Of a DNA stretch of 30,613 nucleotides, positions 1-30,613 are shown piece after piece (position 1 is the stretch's first letter; each line of letters opens with the position of its first letter). Source of the stretch: a virus; the IMG/VR virus record IMGVR_UViG_3300047557_002095, positions 1 through 30,613 of that record. One strand, written 5' to 3'. The notes beneath the pieces are model-generated. The model was not told the DNA's origin. It ran no database searches and worked only from the letters and a program-made list of their open reading frames with translations. Made by a program: the position numbers and the translations under genes.

Positions 1-127
1 GTGAGTTTATTTACGCTTGCCATGGTGTCTCCGATGAGGACGCGGCGGGAGGAATCGAACCTCCGTCTTAGGTGTTACTCGTCAGTCAACACCCAGCTCT
101 ACCACTGAGCTACGCCGCTAACCTCAC
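1..127. repeat. Terminal exact direct repeat, copy 1 (identical to 30487-30613); end overlap of a circular or circularly permuted genome
   Basis: The first 127 nt recur base for base as the last 127 nt. The repeat cuts through a CDS (the N-terminus of 30171-30509 reappears at 1-23) and duplicates the tRNA-like gene. It therefore looks like a contig overlap, not a biological duplication. Confidence 0.9.
41..119 (-). tRNA. tRNA-like gene: Val(GAC)-type body with an 8-nt insertion in the anticodon loop (15-nt loop, or an extended anticodon stem)
   Basis: Minus-strand read: GCGGCG/CGCCGC acceptor stem; U8; D arm GCTC-AGTGGTA-GAGC (A14, G18, G19); anticodon stem GGGTG/CACCT enclosing TTGACTGACGAGTAA; 5-nt variable loop AAGAC; T arm GGAGG-TTCGATT-CCTCC. 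No CCA is encoded, and positions 1:72 would be an A:G mismatch. Confidence 0.7.
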
Positions 128-519: not shown

Positions 520-1734
520 TTAGACTGCCAATCCACTGATGACGCCGTGGAATGGAGGTACGATGTAGGACTGCAAGTATCCACCGAAGCGGAAGCTGTA
601 GCTATCGCTCGATGCATCACGCAACAACACAGTGCCGTCGTCGTCAAAGAATCCGAAGTCAGGTCTGTGGTGGATGCTGATGAAGTTATCGTTCAAGAGG
701 TACACGCGGTCGTCTTCACAGAAGCGCTCTGGGAAGATACCTACTGGGCCAGCAGCAGACATGAATTCCAAACCACGGAAGCTGATCTTGCCAACCAAGT
801 CTTGAGCGCGAGGATCAAGCAAGTATTGCTTTTGGTCTTCGAGGATATTCAAGAGCTTACGGAATTGAACGAAGGAGCAGATGATCAAGTTAGGTACTTT
901 ACCAGACTTGCGCTGAACTTCCATCATGCCTTGGTTCAAGAGGTCAGCAGTGATACCTGCACCAGATGCAGCGATCTGAGCAGATGCCTGCCAACGACGA
1001 CCAACGGTGATGCTGTACTGAGTACCGGAAGTAGCATCGAGAACACCCTTCAAGCCCGAAGGATCGTTGTCCTTAGAGTTTTGCATGTAAAGGGTCTTTG
1101 CGCCAGAGTCAGCAGTCAAGTCCACAGATCCGCTGATGCGGGAAAGGGTGAGAGTGCGGGTAGCAGGAGCTACAGCAGTAATCTCCCAAACAGCAGCAGT
1201 GGAGTATGGGTTAGCTACGGAGTCTACGTTGATGTAATCCTTTTCTTCAAAGTTAGACTCTTTCCAGGTAGCAGCAGAGATAACAACGGTAGGAGCAGCA
1301 GCAGTACCACCAGCAGCAGCAGCACTGGTTACACCGAGGCTACCAGTTCCGTCGTTGAACAAAGAGCGGGACATATTGCGCATCCAAGATTCAACTGCCT
1401 TTTGGGTAGAGAATTTGGTGAGTTCAATGAACGCGCCTTCAGACACGGAAGCAGCTTTGATAGCTTCACGGTCGATCTGACCTACAGCGTACATTTTCTT
1501 TGCTTCAATCACAGCGTCTTGGATTGCTGCGTAGTTAGCAATAGGGAGAGAGCCCGAACCAACACCGCCAGAGAAGCTGGTAGGAACTGCGATGTCCATA
1601 CGCTTACCGACGAAGTTGTATTCTTTCTTTACGCGTCCGAGAAGGACGTTTGCGCTGTTATAGGTATTGTCTGCGAGTTTGCCATACTTAATCTTGAATA
1701 GATTAGAGGCAGTGCTTAAGCTAAATTGTGCCAT
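520..1734 (-). CDS. Major capsid protein
   Basis: 404-aa ORF after the portal and scaffold genes. Size and position are typical of an HK97-fold coat protein. Strong codon bias: no TTA, CTA or TCA codons over about 385 codons, which leaves the codon-aligned antisense frame open. Confidence 0.75.
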   Translation of the reverse strand: MAQFSLSTASNLFKIKYGKLADNTYNSANVLLGRVKKEYNFVGKRMDIAVPTSFSGGVGSGSLPIANYAAIQDAVIEAKKMYAVGQIDREAIKAASVSEGAFIELTKFSTQKAVESWMRNMSRSLFNDGTGSLGVTSAAAAGGTAAAPTVVISAATWKESNFEEKDYINVDSVANPYSTAAVWEITAVAPATRTLTLSRISGSVDLTADSGAKTLYMQNSKDNDPSGLKGVLDATSGTQYSITVGRRWQASAQIAASGAGITADLLNQGMMEVQRKSGKVPNLIICSFVQFRKLLNILEDQKQYLLDPRAQDLVGKISFRGLEFMSAAGPVGIFPERFCEDDRVYLLNDNFISIHHRPDFGFFDDDGTVLLRDASSDSYSFRFGGYLQSYIVPPFHGVISGLAV

Positions 1735-2980: not shown

Positions 2981-5209
2981 TTAAACGCCCGAAGTAGGTT
3001 GGACTGGCCCGCCTACGCCTAGCTGTTCTTCGATTGTTGGCATTGGAGGGTTAGCTAAGGCTTGTGCCTCACCGCCCACCAATGGGTTTACTGGCAAACC
3101 AGGTGTTGGCATGATCATACCGCCTGTAGCATCCTGGCCTGCTGGTGTTGGCATGGGTGCCTCTACTGGTGCTACCGCTGCCATAGGTTCAAAAAACATT
3201 GGGAAGAGTGCAAGTGTAGCTAGCTCTTGAGCGAACTTTGGATTCTTTGCAGCTACATCAAGCATCATCATTTCATGAGCTGTGATGTGGTTGATCACCC
3301 GTTCTTGCACGTCTACCGGAGTCTGATACTTGAAAGAGTATTCCTGAACTACGCGGGTATGCTCTCTCCAGTGTAGAATGTGATTCTCAAACTCTTTAGG
3401 TGCAAGCTGCTCTTCACTTAAAGCCTCTCCACCTTGTCTGAGTAATTCCTCATTCTCAGCTTGAGCGGTTCTGACTGCAACGGTTGCAGCATCAACGAAC
3501 TTATCGGCTTGGCCCAGATCAAGTAGGTCAATCACCTGCTCTGCTGTGAACTGGCCAGGGAAACGCTCATTGAGATCCAAGAGTGTCTGAGTACGAGCTG
3601 CGATAGAGCGTGGAAGAGCTGAGCTGTTCTGTACGCGGATGTCATAATCTTTCTCAAGATAAGCCACGTTAAAGAACTTAGTCATCCATTGGTTATCTTT
3701 GCCGATAACACGGATCATGCGCTCATCCGACTCATCGTAGTAGTCGCCACAGACTGCTAGAGTCATCTTGGCAACACCTAGGATCATGTCGTTATATTTA
3801 AGCACTGGCTCATTGTAGCCTTCAGACTCTTGCTCAGAGAGGAACTGAAGCGCCACACCTGCTTTGATGCCTGGGGGTGGTACGCCTCGGCTTACTCCGA
3901 AGACTCCTGAGATCTGCTGGAACTCTTCTTTCACCTTCTCACGGAACGCGAACACATCGCTTGGAACGGTAGGCGCAGTAGCTAGCACTGGAGGTTGAGC
4001 GCCCTTGTATTGAACGATAGTGATGTCATTGCCTAGGCGATCCAGAGCAACCGACCCCGCTGGGACCATCCACTTCGGATGAGATGCGAGCACGATGTTT
4101 CTAAGGAGCATATTGGTGATGTTATTGTAGGTACCTGTAAGCTGCTTGATGTTTTCAAAGAAGGAAACACCATAAAGCTCACCGGGATACTCAATGTCAG
4201 TAAAGCGAACAAACGGCAAATTATCATGCGAATACGGAAACTCCTCATTCTCTAAAATCACGTCGCGTAAGAATACGATCTTACGGCCCTTGTCCATCAT
4301 AGGGCTTCTACGATGCCAGAAAGTGTAGACTACTTGCTCACCACGAGCTGGGCGCAATTCCATTTTCTCGTAATCGTAAACCTGAGCGTCATCCAAATCT
4401 TTAATCTTGGAAGCCTTATCAGGGTAACGCTGACGGAGTTCCTGAGTGTTGACTAGCTCACGGGTGAAGCAATAGTCCACGTCAACAAACTTCTGCTTCT
4501 TTTGAAGTAGGACTTCTGAAGCTAAGAAAGTCTTATATTGAACGTCGCCTACGCGCACTGGACGGTCGATGTAGACAGTGTTGCCTTGTGGATCTTTAGT
4601 GGGTTGACCATCTTGATCAAGCACTGGCACCTTGCCGCCGTGTTCTTTAGAAGCCTTCACCCAAGCTGGGTTGAGATCTCCCTTGTCTTCATTCCAAAGA
4701 ACAAAGAGGTAAGCCTCGCCCATAACGAATGCATTAGTTACGAGCTGAAGAACGATCTTAGTTTCAAAGTCTGACTCGTACCAGACGTGGTCTAGGAGCT
4801 GCTTAGTGACCTTAGCTGCAACCTTATCGCCTAGCTCATCGTTAGTAGGGAGGATAGCTACAGCGGGCTTAAACTTGATCAATCTTGAAGCGCGGTTCTT
4901 GGCCAAATCATAGAGATGGTTGATCACAACCTTACGGACCACTTGAGCCCGATCCGTTCCACGATCTCTAGCATCAAGCCTTGTCTCTAGTTCCTGATAC
5001 TGGATGCCCTTATAGAGCGCCAAGTTCCTACGCATCACTCGGATACGAGGTTCATTCTCTTGCTCAAGGAAGCCCAGCTCAGAAGAAAGCCAGCGAAGGA
5101 CTTCCTCATCGTTTCTTGGATCATCTAGGTCCAGGCTATAGAGCGGGTACTTTGGTTGAGAGAAACTTTTATCTAGGGTGTCTAATGCGCCATCAAAGAA
5201 GTAGCTCAT
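2981..5209 (-). CDS. Portal protein
   Basis: 742-aa ORF downstream of the large terminase gene (a small membrane-protein ORF at 5206-5418 lies between them) and upstream of scaffold and capsid. Called from size and synteny. Pro/Gly-rich C-terminal tail. Confidence 0.7.
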   Translation of the reverse strand: MSYFFDGALDTLDKSFSQPKYPLYSLDLDDPRNDEEVLRWLSSELGFLEQENEPRIRVMRRNLALYKGIQYQELETRLDARDRGTDRAQVVRKVVINHLYDLAKNRASRLIKFKPAVAILPTNDELGDKVAAKVTKQLLDHVWYESDFETKIVLQLVTNAFVMGEAYLFVLWNEDKGDLNPAWVKASKEHGGKVPVLDQDGQPTKDPQGNTVYIDRPVRVGDVQYKTFLASEVLLQKKQKFVDVDYCFTRELVNTQELRQRYPDKASKIKDLDDAQVYDYEKMELRPARGEQVVYTFWHRRSPMMDKGRKIVFLRDVILENEEFPYSHDNLPFVRFTDIEYPGELYGVSFFENIKQLTGTYNNITNMLLRNIVLASHPKWMVPAGSVALDRLGNDITIVQYKGAQPPVLATAPTVPSDVFAFREKVKEEFQQISGVFGVSRGVPPPGIKAGVALQFLSEQESEGYNEPVLKYNDMILGVAKMTLAVCGDYYDESDERMIRVIGKDNQWMTKFFNVAYLEKDYDIRVQNSSALPRSIAARTQTLLDLNERFPGQFTAEQVIDLLDLGQADKFVDAATVAVRTAQAENEELLRQGGEALSEEQLAPKEFENHILHWREHTRVVQEYSFKYQTPVDVQERVINHITAHEMMMLDVAAKNPKFAQELATLALFPMFFEPMAAVAPVEAPMPTPAGQDATGGMIMPTPGLPVNPLVGGEAQALANPPMPTIEEQLGVGGPVQPTSGV

Positions 5210-5418
5210 ACGGCCTCGAATAGATCTTTATTAAGTTTGGCTTCCAAGTCTTGAGTCACTTTCTCAAAATCATTTGAAGCTGGTACATACTGGATCGAAT
5301 GAGTGGACTTTTGCAAGGCTTTTACTTCAATCCAGGCGACAAGCCCCATCCCGAATCCAATCGCGCTTAAGACTGCGAACGCAATAAACAAACCAAAGAA
5401 AACAGTTGTTACTCCCAT
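5206..5418 (-). CDS. Small membrane protein (one or two TM helices)
   Basis: 70-aa ORF. N-terminus VTTVFFGLFIAFAVLSAIGFGMGLVAWI is strongly hydrophobic. Its ends overlap the terL stop and the portal start. Confidence 0.5.
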   Translation of the reverse strand: MGVTTVFFGLFIAFAVLSAIGFGMGLVAWIEVKALQKSTHSIQYVPASNDFEKVTQDLEAKLNKDLFEAV

Positions 5419-6797
5419 GATAGATCATCCTCCGTTTTAAACAAGTCTGGAAAGTCGTCTTCAATCCTGTAGCCACGCTTCATACTCACCGGATCAACTT
5501 TAGGTTCCGGGATATTAAGGATTGAATAGTGGTGAGAGTCGAACACATATCGAAGACAGTCAATAAGGTGGTCGTCCTTTTTAGGGATCTTACCTGAGCC
5601 GTCCTTACGGTAGTGTTCTAACTCCCAAAATAGTTTCACGCATCGAGATGAGATCTTAAGCTTCCCGTGAAGCATCGCGTCTTTGATGAGTGATAAGCCT
5701 GTTAACTTATCGGACTTCATTTTCTGAGTAGGTTCTAAGCCTTCGCTGAATACGTCTAAGACTTCATTTGCAAACCAGGTTGCCGCCTCATCGTAGCCTT
5801 GCCGCCACTCATCGTCCCAAAGCTCATCTCTCTTCTCTCTCACTTGTGGCCAGATCTTAGAGACAGTCATGTTAGCTTGCTCGGTCTCATAGACCTCATC
5901 GAGACAGTAAACCACTTTAGTGTAGGGATTGATCGCGCAGAAGAGAACAGCAAAGCAGCTTGCCCCAGCAGGGTCGGCCCATAGAACCCAGTTAAGCTTC
6001 TTACGATCCCGCCAGATCTCACCCATCAGCTCATCGTGTCTGTAGACCAAATGATTGCCCAGCATAGGAAAGATAGCAGAAGCACCACCTCTAACAAACT
6101 TAGCCTCATACTCACGCTCCCACTTATCGCCCTCTCCACGCCCGTAGAGTTCTGCCTTCTTATCCTCAAGCCACTTACGGCTAATGTGAGGATTGGAGTG
6201 CGTAGGAAGCTGAAAGAATCGTTTAGCAGAGTCCCGCTTGTAGGAGTCAGCAAGCTTAGTGAACTGACCTTCCACGTCTGGAGGCGTTCCAATGATCATA
6301 AGAGGCGCATCGAAAGCAGCGCGGTTAGGATCATAAGCTTCATAGAACTCTTCTCGAAAGTCCTTGAACTCATCAAAGACCGACAGACCTTTGGGCTTAA
6401 CACCCCGGTAGGCATCCACGTTGTCTGATCCATCAAGCTTAATGAATGAGCCGTTATGAAAGGTCACGCGCATCTCGGTGTTATTGATCTCAGAGATCCA
6501 CGACTCAGGCCCCAAGGCTTGAATGCGGCGGGAGGCCCAAAGGATTTCTCGGGCTTGCTTCATGTAGGGCGCGAAGTAATAGTTCTCGCTGCCAGGGAAT
6601 GTGTAGGCAAACCTCCAAAGCAAGTAGCATACCAGTTCCGACTTACCCCAGTTACGGCCACATTGAGCCATGACTTCTTTAACTTCCCCACGGATCAGGG
6701 GTGAGCCTACTTCGATCTGAGATGGGTGTGGGGTCCAATGAGCGTGTAATTCTTTCAGACCCCTAGCGATGCGCTCGATCTCAGGGTGAAATGTCAC
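5409..6797 (-). CDS. terL: Terminase large subunit
   Basis: 462 aa. Walker A-like AQCGRNWGKSE and Walker B-like LSVFDEF, followed by a nuclease-sized C-terminal half. Position is upstream of the portal gene. Confidence 0.85.
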   Translation of the reverse strand: MTFHPEIERIARGLKELHAHWTPHPSQIEVGSPLIRGEVKEVMAQCGRNWGKSELVCYLLWRFAYTFPGSENYYFAPYMKQAREILWASRRIQALGPESWISEINNTEMRVTFHNGSFIKLDGSDNVDAYRGVKPKGLSVFDEFKDFREEFYEAYDPNRAAFDAPLMIIGTPPDVEGQFTKLADSYKRDSAKRFFQLPTHSNPHISRKWLEDKKAELYGRGEGDKWEREYEAKFVRGGASAIFPMLGNHLVYRHDELMGEIWRDRKKLNWVLWADPAGASCFAVLFCAINPYTKVVYCLDEVYETEQANMTVSKIWPQVREKRDELWDDEWRQGYDEAATWFANEVLDVFSEGLEPTQKMKSDKLTGLSLIKDAMLHGKLKISSRCVKLFWELEHYRKDGSGKIPKKDDHLIDCLRYVFDSHHYSILNIPEPKVDPVSMKRGYRIEDDFPDLFKTEDDLSWE

Positions 6798-7141: not shown

Positions 7142-7508
7142 TTGCCACAACCTTCAAAAATGGGTCTTGTGTAAGAATCGTCTGGATCTGCTGAGTGCTT
7201 AGCTTCTCCTCTACGACGTTCGTTATCTCGCCTGAGTGCTCAATCGCCTTACGCTTAGGGTAAAGGTACTGGGCAGCTTCAGCAGCGGCCTTCTGGCGCA
7301 ATTCTGGAGGTATAATGGGCTTCTCTACAACCTCACCCTTTTGGGTAGGCGAGAACGTAAATTCCTTCTCGTATCCAAGTCCCTTCCAGTCACCTAAGGC
7401 AAACCGGCAAAGGATCTCAAACGGGTCACACCCAAGCTCACGTGCTTTCTCTTCCAGGGGAAGCTTGGACTTGTTCGCAGTCCCCTTCGTTCTCCCACCG
7501 TATCTCAT
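7095..7508 (-). CDS. terS: Terminase small subunit candidate
   Basis: 137 aa. N-terminal GGRTKGTANK followed by an LGCDPFEIL helix, then RQKAAAEAAQYLYPKRK. This pattern is typical of phage small terminases. Position is upstream of terL. Confidence 0.65.
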   Translation of the reverse strand: MRYGGRTKGTANKSKLPLEEKARELGCDPFEILCRFALGDWKGLGYEKEFTFSPTQKGEVVEKPIIPPELRQKAAAEAAQYLYPKRKAIEHSGEITNVVEEKLSTQQIQTILTQDPFLKVVANGQSSSKDRTANGSS

Positions 7509-7831
7509 AATACCTGACTACCTTTAACTACTTTAGCCTTGCGCGTCCTAACCTTCGGCTCTTCTAAGGAAGGAGCTTCAATAGCAGCATACGGCTCTTT
7601 AGCTTGCCTTTGAACCTCAAGTTCCCTCTTCCACTGAGAGAGTAGATCAATAAGTTCAATTGCATCCCAATCGCGGTAGCGTTGATAGATATACTCTTCT
7701 ACCCGCTCTGTAATGATCTGGGAGATTTGCTGGGCAAACTGAGCAAGATTAAGCTGATGCTTGAACCGTTCTTCAAGGTGCTTCGTGAGATACCCGATCT
7801 CTTGGCTATACTGTTCAACTGAGCGTTTCAC
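7505..7831 (-). CDS. Hypothetical protein, first gene of the late arm
   Basis: 108-aa ORF with a GTG start at 7831, preceded by AAGGAAG. It overlaps the terS start by 4 nt. Confidence 0.6.
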   Translation of the reverse strand: MKRSVEQYSQEIGYLTKHLEERFKHQLNLAQFAQQISQIITERVEEYIYQRYRDWDAIELIDLLSQWKRELEVQRQAKEPYAAIEAPSLEEPKVRTRKAKVVKGSQVL

Positions 7832-7869
7832 TAGGTTCTTCCTTTCGTGTCGCTGTAATGATGAGCAAT

Positions 7870-7898
7870 ATTAAACAGGAAGCCCTAAAAAAACACAA
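7870..7898 (-). promoter_or_regulatory. Possible late-arm promoter
   Basis: Minus strand reads TTGTGT (7893-7898), 17 nt, TTTAAT (7870-7875). The -35 is weak. Confidence 0.3.
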
Positions 7899-7932
7899 GC
7901 CTGAAACAGAGTTTGAATTCTGAGTCAGGCTT
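7887..7932 (-). terminator. Intrinsic-terminator-like hairpin read on the minus strand
   Basis: AAGCCTGA (7897-7904) pairs with TCAGGCTT (7925-7932), with an inner CAGA/TCTG helix. On the minus strand this is followed by GUG and then U7 (A-run at 7887-7893). There is no U-run on the plus strand. Confidence 0.5.
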
Positions 7933-7941
7933 ATGTATAAC
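7913..7941 (+). promoter_or_regulatory. Sigma70-like promoter firing rightward into the ORF-free region
   Basis: TTGAAT (7913-7918), 17 nt, TATAAC (7936-7941) with TG immediately upstream. Predicted start is near 7948. Confidence 0.55.
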
Positions 7942-7945
7942 ATGA

Positions 7946-8500
7946 TTGCGAAAACAGTTAGTGATACGAGCATACCACTCGTGCGCTAACTTTCAATCCT
8001 TTTCGCAGAGGATTTGACCGTAGCTCTTAAAACACGGTCACGGAATTATCGGGGATGAAAGTCGTCGAGGCGAGCGCTCGTGCCGAATAAAACAATCGAG
8101 CAGGTTGTCTAATAGCTGACAAGGTAAAGGCGGGTTGAGCATTACGCTCCTCTAGCTGACTACACTGGGTCTTGTGAAGAATCGGAAACGTAAAAACACA
8201 GGACAGGGCTTACCACCCCAGTACCGAGTTATTAGGCCACTGGAATTTGATCATCCTATCCTTTCTGGGCGAAAGTGACGGTGACACCTGAAGCAGACGA
8301 TCGACGGCCTAGATGGGAAGCGAGACCATACCATCGAGCGGGGCTAATGCTGAGTTTATAAGCCATAGGGTTTATAGATTGAACACTAACTCCGAGGGGA
8401 TCGAAGCGCAGGCAACCAAAGGCGGCTCAAAGACGGAAGTCCTAGGGCAGGGCTTATGGTCTACTTTTGTCTTTTGTTAGACATTCATTGCATCTTTCTT
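7946..8500 (+). ncRNA. Candidate large structured non-coding RNA, or a ~575-nt structured leader of the first early gene (family unknown)
   Basis: No ORF of 60 aa or more in any frame between 7832 and 8455. The predicted start lies at the base of a nested hairpin at 7946-8008, and several more local helices follow. U.G pairs favour the plus strand. The 3' end is undefined. Confidence 0.35.
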
Positions 8501-8524
8501 CACGCTCATAAGAGGGGGTTCTGC

Positions 8525-8830
8525 ATGACTCTATCTCGACGTGAACAGATGGTTCTCAGTCTCGGTGTAATCTTAGGCATGGCTTTGCTGATGCTCGTGG
8601 GTAAGGCCAGAGTGTCTACACCTTGTGTTAAGGCTCAAGCGAATGTGGAAGCATCGGATCGGCTATGCTCAAAGCTTGCTGATCAAGCTGCTGAAGCGAA
8701 CTGTAGTCACCTTGAAGGGGCTCAGGCTAATCAGTGTCGCTCTATGGTCCTGATGCTTGCCAAGGAAGGTTGTAGAGAAGCTATGGGTTATCAGATGCTT
8801 AAGGCCGAAGCTTCCGAGAGGTGTCTATGA
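8525..8830 (+). CDS. Small Cys-rich membrane-anchored or secreted protein (101 aa)
   Basis: Internal ATG at 8525 is preceded by AAGAGGGGG. The N-terminus has a hydrophobic anchor (MVLSLGVILGMALLMLVG), followed by a soluble part with 6 Cys. Confidence 0.6.
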   Translation: MTLSRREQMVLSLGVILGMALLMLVGKARVSTPCVKAQANVEASDRLCSKLADQAAEANCSHLEGAQANQCRSMVLMLAKEGCREAMGYQMLKAEASERCL

Positions 8831-9250
8831 ACGAGAGCGAAGCAAATCTTCGTATCGCTTTGAAGTGTTTGCGGAAGCTTGAGCAACAGCTTGTAAAACT
8901 TCATAAAAACGGCGCTCTTGATCTGGACTCAGTGGAACTTCTTTTGGATCTTGCGGAGGATGCTTCTGAGTATGTGAAGCTTGCAACGAAGCTTGTGCTT
9001 TAGTGTAAGCATCGTCTAACCAGGCTTGCCTCTTCTTAGCCTCTTCATAATAAGCTCTTTGGTACTCTCGAACTGAAGAAACTTCCCGCTCACTTACAAG
9101 GGCTGAGCTTACCGTGTCGATTGCGTCTGAGATTGTACTTAAAGTCTCAGCATCAACGTCAGCATCGGATGCTTTATAGAGAGCTTGATGGGCAATGCGA
9201 AGGGCTTGCCACATTTCCTCTCTCGCTTTGAAATTCTTAGTTTTACTCAT
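8825..9250 (-). CDS. Hypothetical helical protein encoded against the direction of the early arm
   Basis: A 141-aa open frame, unlikely by chance at this GC content. The SD is weak. Its C-terminal 59 codons overlap a plus-strand ORF. Confidence 0.55.
   Translation of the reverse strand: MSKTKNFKAREEMWQALRIAHQALYKASDADVDAETLSTISDAIDTVSSALVSEREVSSVREYQRAYYEEAKKRQAWLDDAYTKAQASLQASHTQKHPPQDPKEVPLSPDQERRFYEVLQAVAQASANTSKRYEDLLRSRS
8827..9003 (+). CDS. Possible 58-aa protein (alternative to, or overlapping, the minus-strand ORF)
   Basis: ATG at 8827 overlaps the upstream stop (ATGA) and follows GAGAGGTG. However, it is Leu-rich, as expected for the shadow of an E/K/Q-rich antisense gene. Confidence 0.25.
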   Translation: MNESEANLRIALKCLRKLEQQLVKLHKNGALDLDSVELLLDLAEDASEYVKLATKLVL

Positions 9251-9346
9251 AGTGATCCAAAAACAGATGGGCGTGTCCGGTTGACAGCGTTTAAGTGAGT
9301 GCTCTCCCTATGGGACGGCTCTCACCCCACCGCAAGTGAGGCTTGG

Positions 9347-9375
9347 GCTATAACTCTATGCGCTATGTCTGGCAA
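9347..9375 (-). promoter_or_regulatory. Possible promoter for the 8825-9250 gene
   Basis: Minus strand reads TTGCCA (9370-9375), 17 nt, TATAGC (9347-9352). It lies directly downstream of the terminator U-run. Confidence 0.35.
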
Positions 9376-9376
9376 T

Positions 9377-9411
9377 AAAAAACCCCCCGAAAGCACGAGG
9401 CTCACGGAGGG
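9377..9411 (-). terminator. Strand-specific intrinsic terminator (minus strand)
   Basis: Minus-strand RNA reads CCCUCCG-uGAGCcucguGCUUu-CGGGGGG followed by UUUUUUAUU. Two G.U pairs become C/A mismatches on the plus strand, so the hairpin is only strong when read leftward. Confidence 0.6.
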
Positions 9412-9440
9412 ATGAGAAGGATCAGATCTCGACCTCAAAC

Positions 9441-9457
9441 TGTCTAAACTTTAGACA
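9441..9457. promoter_or_regulatory. Operator-like perfect palindrome O1
   Basis: TGTCTAAA-C-TTTAGACA (TGTC-N9-GACA). Confidence 0.55.
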
Positions 9458-9459
9458 AC

Positions 9460-9476
9460 TGTCAAACATTTTGACA
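9460..9476. promoter_or_regulatory. Operator-like perfect palindrome O2, containing back-to-back TTGACA hexamers
   Basis: TGTCAAA-CAT-TTTGACA (TGTC-N9-GACA). TTGACA lies at 9471-9476 on the plus strand and at 9460-9465 on the minus strand. The centre is 19 bp from O1. Confidence 0.55.
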
Positions 9477-9529
9477 CTTGAAAACTCTTTGCTTCCATTG
9501 TAGCAATTAGCTTCACTTTGGAGGATCAG

Positions 9530-10923: not shown

Positions 10924-11122
10924 GCTAACAAAGATCAACCGCTCAACTGAGTGGCGCAAAGAACAACAAGGGCTATTCCCTCGCCGAATCATCACCGGAT
11001 TCAATTCAGTCAGATGGGATAAGGCAGAAATTTTAGAATGGCTCAAATTTAACAACCCAGGCGGGCGTAAAGGTAAGAACACTTGCAAAGATCCAACAAA
11101 TCCCTATCAGAGAAAAACATGA
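10880..11122 (+). CDS. AlpA/excisionase-like HTH regulator
   Basis: ILITWPEVHELTKINRSTEWRKEQQGLFPRRI...VRWDKAEILEWL matches the AlpA/MerR-type winged-helix pattern. Confidence 0.7.
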   Translation: MKKKRILITWPEVHELTKINRSTEWRKEQQGLFPRRIITGFNSVRWDKAEILEWLKFNNPGGRKGKNTCKDPTNPYQRKT

Positions 11123-11283
11123 GCTGTAAGACCTGCCAAGGTGAGGGCTCATGCACTTATATCGAAGACAGTCGAACGATTGAAGAAACTTGCCCTAGGT
11201 GTGATGGATATGGGCAATCGCTTAATAACGAGTATACTCCCATCACAAGCTATAACCCTTATATCGAGGTAAACCTAAAATGA
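11119..11283 (+). CDS. Small DnaJ-type zinc-finger protein (CxxCxGxG, two copies)
   Basis: ATG at 11119 overlaps the upstream stop (ATGA). Motifs CKTCQGEG and CPRCDGYG. Confidence 0.55.
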   Translation: MSCKTCQGEGSCTYIEDSRTIEETCPRCDGYGQSLNNEYTPITSYNPYIEVNLK

Positions 11284-30170: not shown

Positions 30171-30509
30171 CTAACGACGCTTATCGTAGTAAAGATCTAC
30201 CGAAGCAGTGCAGGTAGTGGTACCACCTGTGAAGTCAAAGATTGCCCGGACATAAGTCATCCCAAACGTGGTCGCCCGAAGAACTTCAGCTCCAGTGCCA
30301 GTCTTTGCTGCAAAGGTAATCCAGTCGAGCCAGTTAGAATTGTCTGGACTGGTTTGAATCTTAACCACAAGGCTCGTGCCAGCTCCCAATGCAGTCACAT
30401 TTAGTAGACCGGCATAGTCAACTTGTAAGCCTTCAAGGGTGTAGCTCGAACCATTGGTGTCACCGGACACAGCGCCCGATGAGAGAGTGAGTTTATTTAC
30501 GCTTGCCAT
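30171..30509 (-). CDS. Hypothetical small structural protein
   Basis: 112-aa beta-rich ORF with a GGAG ribosome-binding site. It lies immediately downstream of the tRNA-like gene on the circular map. Confidence 0.6.
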   Translation of the reverse strand: MASVNKLTLSSGAVSGDTNGSSYTLEGLQVDYAGLLNVTALGAGTSLVVKIQTSPDNSNWLDWITFAAKTGTGAEVLRATTFGMTYVRAIFDFTGGTTTCTASVDLYYDKRR

Positions 30510-30613
30510 GGTGTCTCCGATGAGGACGCGGCGGGAGGAATCGAACCTCCGTCTTAGGTGTTACTCGTCAGTCAACACCCAGCTCTACCACTGAGCTACG
30601 CCGCTAACCTCAC
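30487..30613. repeat. Terminal exact direct repeat, copy 2 (identical to 1-127)
   Basis: Same as copy 1. The unique genome length is 30,486 bp. Confidence 0.9.
30527..30605 (-). tRNA. Second copy of the same tRNA-like gene, inside the terminal overlap (same locus on the circular map)
   Basis: Identical sequence to 41-119, offset by 30,486 nt. Confidence 0.7.

Follow-up and report, generated by a model that had tools for sequence, protein, structure and literature searches.

The phage genome recovered as IMG/VR record IMGVR_UViG_3300047557_002095, analysed over its whole length of 30,613 nucleotides (nt; called the window here, and the source of all coordinates), very probably carries a conserved structured RNA on its plus strand at 7946–8476, between its two divergent gene arms. 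Four phage lineages carry the element at an equivalent position and in one orientation, most of its helices covary, one hairpin loop forms a pseudoknot with the 3' end, and no family of Rfam 15 matches it. An earlier first-pass annotation of this DNA had proposed a structured plus-strand RNA of ~0.5 kb here, and the comparison of homologues bears this out. The element is read here as a stand-alone, trans-acting early noncoding RNA of ~530 nt whose function is inferred, a reading to which we give a probability of about one half.

The window represents a complete genome of ~30,486 base pairs (bp), circular or terminally redundant, because positions 1–127 recur as an exact 127-bp copy at 30487–30613. 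The gap in question (7832–8524, 690 bp) separates a minus-strand late arm from a plus-strand early arm. As first reported, no open reading frame (ORF) of at least 60 amino acids (aa) lies inside 7832–8455; the longest internal ORF has 55 aa (8313–8480, plus), and a 124-aa ORF at 8456–8830 is the upstream extension of the early gene starting at 8525. A conserved reading frame, which the first-pass annotation had named as a sign that would speak against an RNA, is not found in the ten homologues. Every frame is broken by 3–16 stop codons, and in the alignment the gap lengths between lineages are not multiples of three.

Searches with the flanking proteins returned one close relative, IMGVR_UViG_3300032311_001256, and a search with the large terminase TerL returned 57 related loci. 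Wherever nhmmer found the element, it separated the first late gene from the early arm and ran in the direction of the latter. Its carriers form four lineages, namely W (the window, L002 and L068), S (L017 and L016), B (L029, L064, L063 and L024) and L021 alone, with TerL 61–97% identical to that of the window and islands of 88–94% nucleotide identity within the element. Homology covers 7946–8476 entirely in L017, L016 and L002. Between the window and L002, positions 8009–8240 are 100% identical and the flanking genes 94–97% identical. Several of the few substitutions that separate the window from its close relative are compensatory: CUUUC/GAAAG has become CUUCC/GGAAG, and in a 12-bp hairpin the loop has changed and a G.U pair has become G-C. 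Moreover, a covariance model of the 3' core of the RNA (R1) finds the core in all carriers and, over 66 loci (503 kb), in the known carriers only. A pattern scan of viral, metagenome and genome collections with the motif of hairpin P2 (described below) yielded the same lineages plus chance matches without the complementary arm, and no convincing match in any cellular genome. The contig names of the carriers belong to what we take to be JGI freshwater sets. A separate locus, L015 (~700–1260, minus), shares the promoter, the 5' hairpin P1 and P2 only; the next ~300 nt up to its early gene are unrelated and ORF-poor, an Rfam scan of the locus found nothing, and the locus may combine the 5' module with a different RNA body.

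The helices were aligned by hand with conserved unpaired motifs as anchors and N in place of gaps, and a covariance model built from this hand alignment was then used to align the native sequences. Every test was accompanied by 500 shuffles, scored on five measures, and by slid controls. For the 3' core (hairpin HpA, pseudoknot PK1, the GGGG/CCCC helix and the 12-bp hairpin), the hand alignment gives 30 pairs with 95.5% of cells paired and 22 pairs changed on both sides, against shuffle means of 73.6% and 12.2 such pairs and slid values of 28–50% and 1–7. The covariance-model alignment of the native sequences, taken without PK1, shows 96.2% of cells paired over 21 pairs, 16 of which changed on both sides (shuffle means 74.1% and 8.8; slid 30–55% and 1–4). 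For P2, both helices of the P5 domain and the second pseudoknot PK2, aligned by hand over the helix arms only, 94% of cells are paired and 13 of the 19 pairs changed on both sides (shuffle means 73.6% and 6.5; slid 34–51% and 1–2). In each test, four of the five measures had observed values that none of the 500 shuffles attained; for the remaining one, the count of further pair types, 1–4 shuffles attained it, the figure for the hand alignment of the 3' core being 2. The recurrence of a helix at the same position and with the same length, made of different sequence in four lineages, is hard to explain without selection on pairing. Automated folding points the same way, as 20 of 106 pairs predicted by RNAalifold on MAFFT-aligned lineages W and S are compensatory, and separate folds of group B and of W plus S give the same architecture. 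Plain MAFFT and RNAalifold over all ten sequences recovered few helices, the alignment being out of register because loop and helix lengths differ between lineages; for this reason the per-lineage folds, the hand alignment and the covariance model were used.

The same helices also identify the strand. They contain 36 G.U or U.G cells and no A.C or C.A cells, and since the 36 would be mismatches on the minus strand, the plus strand is the folded one, as had been suggested from the 5' hairpin. Furthermore, the GNRA loops (GAAA and GGAA tetraloops are both present) and the conserved promoter-like site before P1 argue for RNA rather than single-stranded DNA. Compensatory helices, the lack of a conserved frame and a strand-specific G.U bias, by which structured noncoding RNAs are generally recognised, are thus found together in this element.

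At its 5' end the RNA forms P1 (7946–8008), a nested hairpin whose base pairs UUGCGAAAA (7946–7954) with UUUUCGCAG (8000–8008). G7950–C8004 is replaced by U-A in L002 and L068, which is a compensatory change, and in each lineage a long 5' hairpin of its own sequence closes on UGC/GCA. The following stretch, AGGAUUU and hairpin P2 (8009–8039), is an island of 88–94% nucleotide identity. P2 pairs GACCG (8016–8020) with CGGUC (8035–8039) around a conserved 14-nt loop, UAGCUCUUAAAACA, and corresponds to the helix first placed at 8015–8020/8035–8040; it covaries to AACCG/CGGUU, AACCC/GGGUU and AGGCC/GGUCU, and is GACCG/CGGUU with a G.U pair in L015. P3 (8050–8067) is a GAAA-tetraloop hairpin, CGG-G-GAU[GAAA]GUC-G-UCG, which reads GGG[GAAA]UCC in L068, with both sides changed, CGAUCUUG[GAAA]CAGGGUCG in L017, and GUC[GAAA]GAC and AUU[GAAA]GAU in group B.

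The middle of the RNA begins with a hairpin domain at 8129–8157, in which an outer helix (GGC 8129–8131/GCU 8155–8157) surrounds the inner helix GAGC 8137–8140/GCUC 8146–8149. The inner helix, one of those first proposed, has different paired arms in each lineage, which read from the sequences are GGUGUC/GACACC in L017, GAUGUC/GACAUC in L016, GGUC/GACC in group B and GGCGUU/GACGUC in L021. The P5 domain (8164–8222) consists of the outer helix ACUGGG 8164–8169/CCCAGU 8217–8222, likewise anticipated and now found to covary with 4 of 5 pairs changed on both sides, and the inner helix UCUUGUG 8170–8176/CACAGGA 8197–8203, which pairs in 100% of cells with 4 of 4 pairs changed on both sides. It also contains a mini-hairpin, CG[GAAA]CG (8183–8190), the conserved internal loops GUGAAG and GUAAAAAC, and a 3' bulge with CAGGG. 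RNAalifold on MAFFT-aligned sequences gives the same P5 helices. A hairpin specific to lineage W, CUUUC[UGGGC]GAAAG (8261–8275), becomes CUUCC...GGAAG in L002 through a compensatory U-A to C-G exchange, and is missing from L017, L016 and group B.

In the 3' part, HpA (8312–8335) pairs GAUGG (8312–8316) with CCAUC (8331–8335); 4 of its 5 pairs changed on both sides, and its arms in the other lineages are CGUAG/CUACG, GCAGG/CCUGC, GCGG/CCGU and CUGG/CCAG. Its 14-nt loop provides AGACCAUA (8323–8330), which pairs with UAUGGUCU (8455–8462) close to the 3' end. This helix was already listed in the first-pass annotation, and it forms the pseudoknot PK1, in which 4 of 6 pairs changed on both sides (AACCGC/GCGGUU in L017 and L016, AGCCA/UGGCU in group B, AGACC/GGUCU in L021). 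Between the PK1 strands, the helix CGGGG 8339–8343/CUCCG 8390–8394 encloses a conserved CUGAG, a conserved G.G mismatch with U-A and A-U pairs beside it, and a 12-bp hairpin, 8353–8364/8369–8380. Of the 6 pairs in the enclosing helix, 5 changed on both sides, giving arms such as CAGGGG/CCCCUG and GGCAGC/GCUGCC; in the 12-bp hairpin 99% of cells pair and 7–9 pairs changed on both sides. The helix initially drawn at 8358–8364/8369–8375 is part of this hairpin. Its proposed enclosing helix, 8352–8356/8388–8392, has to be given up, as it clashes with both covarying helices, 8353–8364/8369–8380 and 8339–8343/8390–8394. A candidate second pseudoknot, PK2, joins UAAAA (8191–8195) in the P5 internal loop to UUUUG (8465–8469) in the tail; all its cells pair, one pair changed on both sides from A-U to U-A (UAAAA/UUUUG here, CAAUA/UAUUG in group B), and one further change turns U.G into C-G. 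A closing helix offered by RNAalifold, GCAGAGG/CUUUUGU, consists entirely of G.U and A-U pairs, is invariant in the window and L017 lineages and is impossible in group B; PK2 was preferred to it. The covariation therefore supports a fold in which two pseudoknots, PK1 and the candidate PK2, bring the 3' tail back into the RNA body.

A putative sigma-70-like early promoter precedes the RNA at 7913–7941 (plus), with the -35 element TTGAAT (7913–7918), a 17-nt spacer and the -10 element TATAAC (7936–7941). It had been noted from the window, and the homologues have an equivalent arrangement in the corresponding place, for instance TTGAAG-17-TATATC in L017 and L016. In every lineage such a promoter-like site lies 5–10 nt before the base of P1, in agreement with the start first predicted near 7948. 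The RNA gene is drawn from the base of the 5' hairpin at 7946 as its probable 5' end. The probable 3' end is the end of the conserved tail ACUUUUGUCUUUUG (8463–8476), which carries the 3' strand of PK2 and a U-rich tract; its UACU(U/A)UUGU is common to all four lineages and sets the boundary. The U-rich tract directly after the PK1 helix could act as a terminator tail. One minus-strand promoter-like site, from 7996 to 7969, which might serve an antisense transcript of the RNA I type, lies inside P1 and is not conserved, because P1 sequences are not conserved between lineages. Additionally, a terminator-like element overlaps the early promoter at 7887–7932. It consists of a run of seven A (7887–7893) followed by a hairpin, AAGCCTGA (7897–7904) and TCAGGCTT (7925–7932), so that, read on the minus strand, a stem and then seven T precede the first late gene by ~50 nt; the loop of the hairpin contains the early -35 element. 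The same layout of A-run, hairpin and -35 element in the loop occurs in L017, L016, L029, L064, L063 and L024 with different stem sequences. The hairpin may block leftward read-through or belong to an antitermination scheme of the late genes.

Other members of this phage group lack the RNA, as judged by model R1. Absence from close relatives had been named beforehand as a point that would count against the RNA; its absence from some relatives argues that the RNA is accessory, not that it is unreal. The relatives without it carry varied genes in the place concerned, and the RNA is therefore considered to occupy a variable slot for the first early gene. In L004 and L019, where TerL is 77% identical and the divergent gap is an AT-rich 388 nt, a gene for a DnaD-like helicase loader or replication initiator (phrog_2514, E = 9e-34) occupies the slot and is followed by a second gene with a weak helicase-loader match (1818–2642 and 1274–1798 of L004, both minus, with the same genes in L019). 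In L006 the first early gene (502–1863, minus) has an ART-PolyVal ADP-ribosyltransferase domain, which fits the idea that the slot holds host-takeover genes. L012 has a ParB-C-like protein, and L026 and L035 have GP88. The suggestion that absence of the RNA tracks a protein initiator was dropped, as it holds in L004 and L019 and not in the other relatives. Among the carriers, the gene that follows the RNA also varies, being a 101-aa protein in the window, a DUF6321 protein in L017 and a ~65-aa Lys/Gly-rich ORF in group B. The group B ORF is conserved, is rich in Lys, Gly and Ala (MKESGYGSQAAS...KEACKDE) and is followed by a GC-rich hairpin and a U-run; it is located at ~1400–1630 (minus) in L029 and 5199–5394 (plus) in L064, and occurs also in L063 and L024. 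In this group the RNA and the ORF may form a transcription unit of their own.

The differing downstream genes, both ends held within the fold and a slot that holds varied genes are the grounds on which a free RNA is favoured over a regulator of one gene. The first-pass annotation had offered both a free RNA and a leader; the choice is not settled, and the balance lies with the free RNA. On genome entry, it would be the first transcript made by the host RNA polymerase from the rightward early promoter. It would then fold into a compact multi-domain body, with the 5' end locked in P1, several hairpins with GNRA loops and conserved unpaired motifs, and the 3' end tucked back through pairing of the HpA loop with 8455–8462 and of the P5 internal loop with the U-rich tail. 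The PK1 helix and the U-rich tail would probably end a good share of the transcripts, and the remainder would read into the early genes. The folded RNA would act in trans; most likely it would bind, early in infection, a protein or complex of the host or of the phage, and serve either as a scaffold or as an effector of host takeover or anti-defence. Early proteins have been swapped between the carrier lineages (Erf versus RecT-like) and the RNA has stayed. Together with its share of the genome and its proposed place as the first transcript, this suggests an early task that proteins usually perform, for instance host takeover, anti-defence or replication.

Several points weigh against the reading of a free early RNA. 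The structural alignments were fitted by hand or with a hand-derived model and so lean towards structure, and as only four lineages are independent, counts per sequence overstate the number of evolutionary events. PK2 is tentative, with one covarying pair that represents one event. The caution that helices of such length also arise by chance holds for the folding energy, which is borderline, with a minimum free energy z-score against shuffles of -1.73 for the plus and -1.33 for the minus strand, values not convincing alone; the covariation, in contrast, stands far above its controls. From a single sequence the case for an RNA is weak, and the support is comparative, not thermodynamic. Moreover, the early promoter is absent from the list of a strict consensus scan, as the last base of its -10 element is C. 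No canonical intrinsic terminator lies between the RNA and the gene at 8525, as had been stated from the start, which leaves room for a leader role. Promoter, both RNA ends, termination at the tail, action in trans and target are all inferred from sequence.

The leading rival is a giant cis-acting leader of the early operon, which would control elongation or termination in the manner of put or EAR antiterminators or of a riboswitch, or else the stability or translation of the early genes. It agrees with the position of the RNA, which shares its strand with the early promoter and the first early gene and lies immediately between the two, with no canonical terminator intervening, and with the U-rich tail, which takes part both in a terminator-like arrangement (PK1 and the U tract) and in PK2 and could be a switch. 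However, cis-regulators usually travel with one gene family, and here the downstream gene is unrelated between lineages, which argues against a regulator dedicated to one gene. The RNA and small ORF of group B seem to make up a separate unit that ends in a hairpin and U-run; inspection, by eye only, showed no conserved pairing of an alternative kind with either a terminator or a ribosome-binding site; and relatives run similar late and early arms without the RNA. Known leaders of this kind are also far smaller. Like HK022 put and the EAR or LoaP-type leaders, the RNA lies directly downstream of an early promoter and in cis with the next genes; unlike put (~70 nt, two stem-loops) and EAR (~120 nt), it has ~530 nt and two pseudoknots, matches neither in Rfam and is followed by genes that are not conserved. 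A leader is hence judged unlikely, and a promoter-only early leader, as considered in the first-pass annotation, is excluded by the conserved structure.

Somewhat lower in probability is a replication RNA or origin, whose transcript would prime or activate replication, as ColE1 RNA II or the RNA of an R-loop origin does, and so replace a protein initiator. The first-pass annotation had raised an origin on the ground that the phage encodes no initiator, and that premise holds: the complete genome has SSB, Erf, a Gam-like protein and a phosphoesterase, and no polymerase, primase, helicase, helicase loader or initiator was detected among its proteins. The early arms of group B are equally minimal, and the slot of L004 and L019 contains the DnaD-like initiator and the weak helicase-loader match. 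The parallel to ColE1 RNA II is that both would be structured transcripts of ~550 nt made by host RNA polymerase in a replicon without an initiator protein (here by proposal and from the sequence), and sibling phages hold a protein initiator in the slot. However, covariation places the 3' end in PK1 and PK2, and a primer would need it free for DNA; an end held inside the RNA is a poor fit to a simple primer. In RNA II the 3' part stays hybridised to the template DNA, and cutting by RNase H makes it a primer for DNA polymerase I. The present RNA also differs from RNA II in having no clear antisense partner like RNA I, a 3' end in pseudoknots that is not free for a hybrid, and no sequence similarity (no match in Rfam; the plasmid collection was not searched). 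Furthermore, the ART-PolyVal, ParB-C-like and GP88 genes in the slot of other relatives make the positional replacement unspecific, the region has no iterons, DnaA boxes, repeat arrays or operator arrays by repeat search, and the GC-skew turn here merely follows gene orientation. The origin is therefore kept and not favoured. It is similarly doubtful that the RNA is itself the replication initiator of the phage, an RNA-only origin in a tailed phage doing the job of the DnaD-like initiator and helicase loader of its siblings; such an RNA might recruit host replication or recombination proteins, or prime after remodelling of its 3' end. That low estimate does not cover a new ribozyme or a self-assembling RNA particle, which the element may also be.

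A DNA-level element, meaning a pac or cos site, a divergent promoter or operator or a single-stranded DNA structure with no functional RNA, would suit the adjoining packaging genes and the divergent promoters and terminator-like hairpin of the left edge (7887–7941). It is very unlikely, given that multi-helix covariation over ~470 nt with pairs 130–275 nt apart is unexpected for duplex DNA sites, that the G.U bias is strand-specific (36 versus no A.C), that GNRA loops are present and that operator- or iteron-type repeats are lacking. Least probable of all is that the element is some known large RNA in diverged or permuted form, for example RNase P RNA, tmRNA, a group I or II intron, ROOL or GOLLD. 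Two 10-mers shared with E. coli RNase P RNA speak for this, and no Rfam 15 model and no ARAGORN prediction supports it.

In the database scans, cmscan with Rfam 15 found only a tRNA in the whole window at gathering scores, chance matches only (a CRISPR repeat and a microRNA) in 7700–8700 at E <= 10, and nothing in the element at E <= 5 in four homologous loci. The models of ROOL (RF03087), GOLLD (RF01998), OLE, RNase P, tmRNA and 6S gave no match in these scans. ARAGORN found no tmRNA, and its only tRNA is ~7.8 kb from the RNA; moreover, the 5' end of the RNA pairs locally in P1 and not with the 3' end, as it would in a tmRNA, whose two ends make a tRNA-like domain and which also has a tag reading frame. 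The two 10-mers, GGCCUAGAUG (8306–8315) and UAGGGCAGGG (8443–8452), are identical to stretches of E. coli RNase P RNA (rnpB). They stand in permuted order and only in lineage W, one of them coincides with a helix arm that has covaried to different sequences elsewhere, and the probability of such sharing by chance is ~0.045; the sharing was judged chance. The marks of bacterial RNase P RNA, namely CR-I to CR-V in order, the P4 pseudoknot and an Rfam match, were not found in the element.

Large, intricate and conserved RNAs of bacteria and phages are rare; examples are the ribosomal RNAs, RNase P, group I and II introns, tmRNA, OLE, ROOL, GOLLD and raiA. GOLLD was first found in lake metagenomes, and the present RNA similarly comes from freshwater samples. 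ROOL and GOLLD are large ornate RNAs, often of phages or prophages, with structures determined by cryo-electron microscopy (PMC12286853). Self-assembly into homo-oligomeric complexes is a mark of ROOL, GOLLD and OLE. The present RNA resembles them as a phage-borne noncoding RNA of the 0.5–0.8 kb class with many conserved helices, unpaired nucleotides and pseudoknots. It differs from them in matching neither model at E <= 10, in the ~7.8 kb to the nearest tRNA gene where theirs often adjoins, in its place at the very start of the early operon and in its narrow distribution over four lineages of one phage group. The first-pass annotation had likened the size to ROOL and GOLLD and made no claim of homology, a restraint that proved right. 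With the pRNA of phi29 (RF00044) it shares being a phage-encoded structured RNA transcribed early from a gene adjoining the packaging genes; unlike it, pRNA has ~170 nt and a different fold, with no Rfam match here. The pRNA phages have protein-primed replication and no small terminase, whereas this phage has a T4-type TerL and a P22/SU10-type portal. A survey of IMG/VR contigs predicted thousands of unnamed candidate structured RNAs, some of them upstream of terminase genes (PMC10690425). The present family belongs to the same collection; no named or characterised family corresponds to it. The element represents a new RNA family, alike in general kind to ROOL and GOLLD and a member of neither, set apart here from the named families only.

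Such a family is of interest because each new class of large RNA has so far led to new biochemistry or has stayed an instructive puzzle. The RNA takes up 2% of a 30-kb genome and, in some relatives, 15–20% of a tiny early region. It forms a compact, well-defined target for work on structure and function, and indicates that RNA genes can lie concealed in the divergent, gene-free regions of uncultured phages.

The RNA is flanked on the left by the first late-arm gene (7505–7831, minus; 108 aa) and on the right by the first early-arm protein gene (8525–8830, plus; 101 aa), both with no family match; the start at 8525 has a Shine-Dalgarno sequence, AGAGGGGG (8511–8518), graded good. The late arm begins at 7831 with two small proteins, continues with the T4-type TerL (5409–6797), the P22/SU10-type portal (2981–5209) and an SU10-type capsid protein (520–1734), and proceeds to virion and tail genes across the junction. 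The early arm encodes small proteins, the Gam-like protein (Sipho_Gp157), an AlpA-like regulator, SSB, Erf and a metallophosphoesterase. Among cultured phages there is no close relative, TerL identity being at most 25%, and a DNA similarity search against deposited phages gave no match. A second ORF-poor stretch in the early arm (9004–9517), overlapped by a 141-aa minus-strand ORF (8825–9250) with no family match, was considered as part of the RNA element and rejected, as it is kept only in the closest relative examined, L068. A 66-aa early ORF (11083–11283, plus) weakly matches Q-like antitermination proteins (phrog_127, E = 0.006), which is of interest because a terminator-like hairpin precedes the late genes. 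Finally, a tRNA-like gene at 38–119 (minus), duplicated at 30524–30605, scores 49.8 bits to the tRNA model. It is labelled tRNA-Ser with anticodon tga by ARAGORN, and its anticodon loop has 15 nt (UUGACUGACGAGUAA) and not 7, so that the gene may have a short insert or intron or be a non-standard tRNA.

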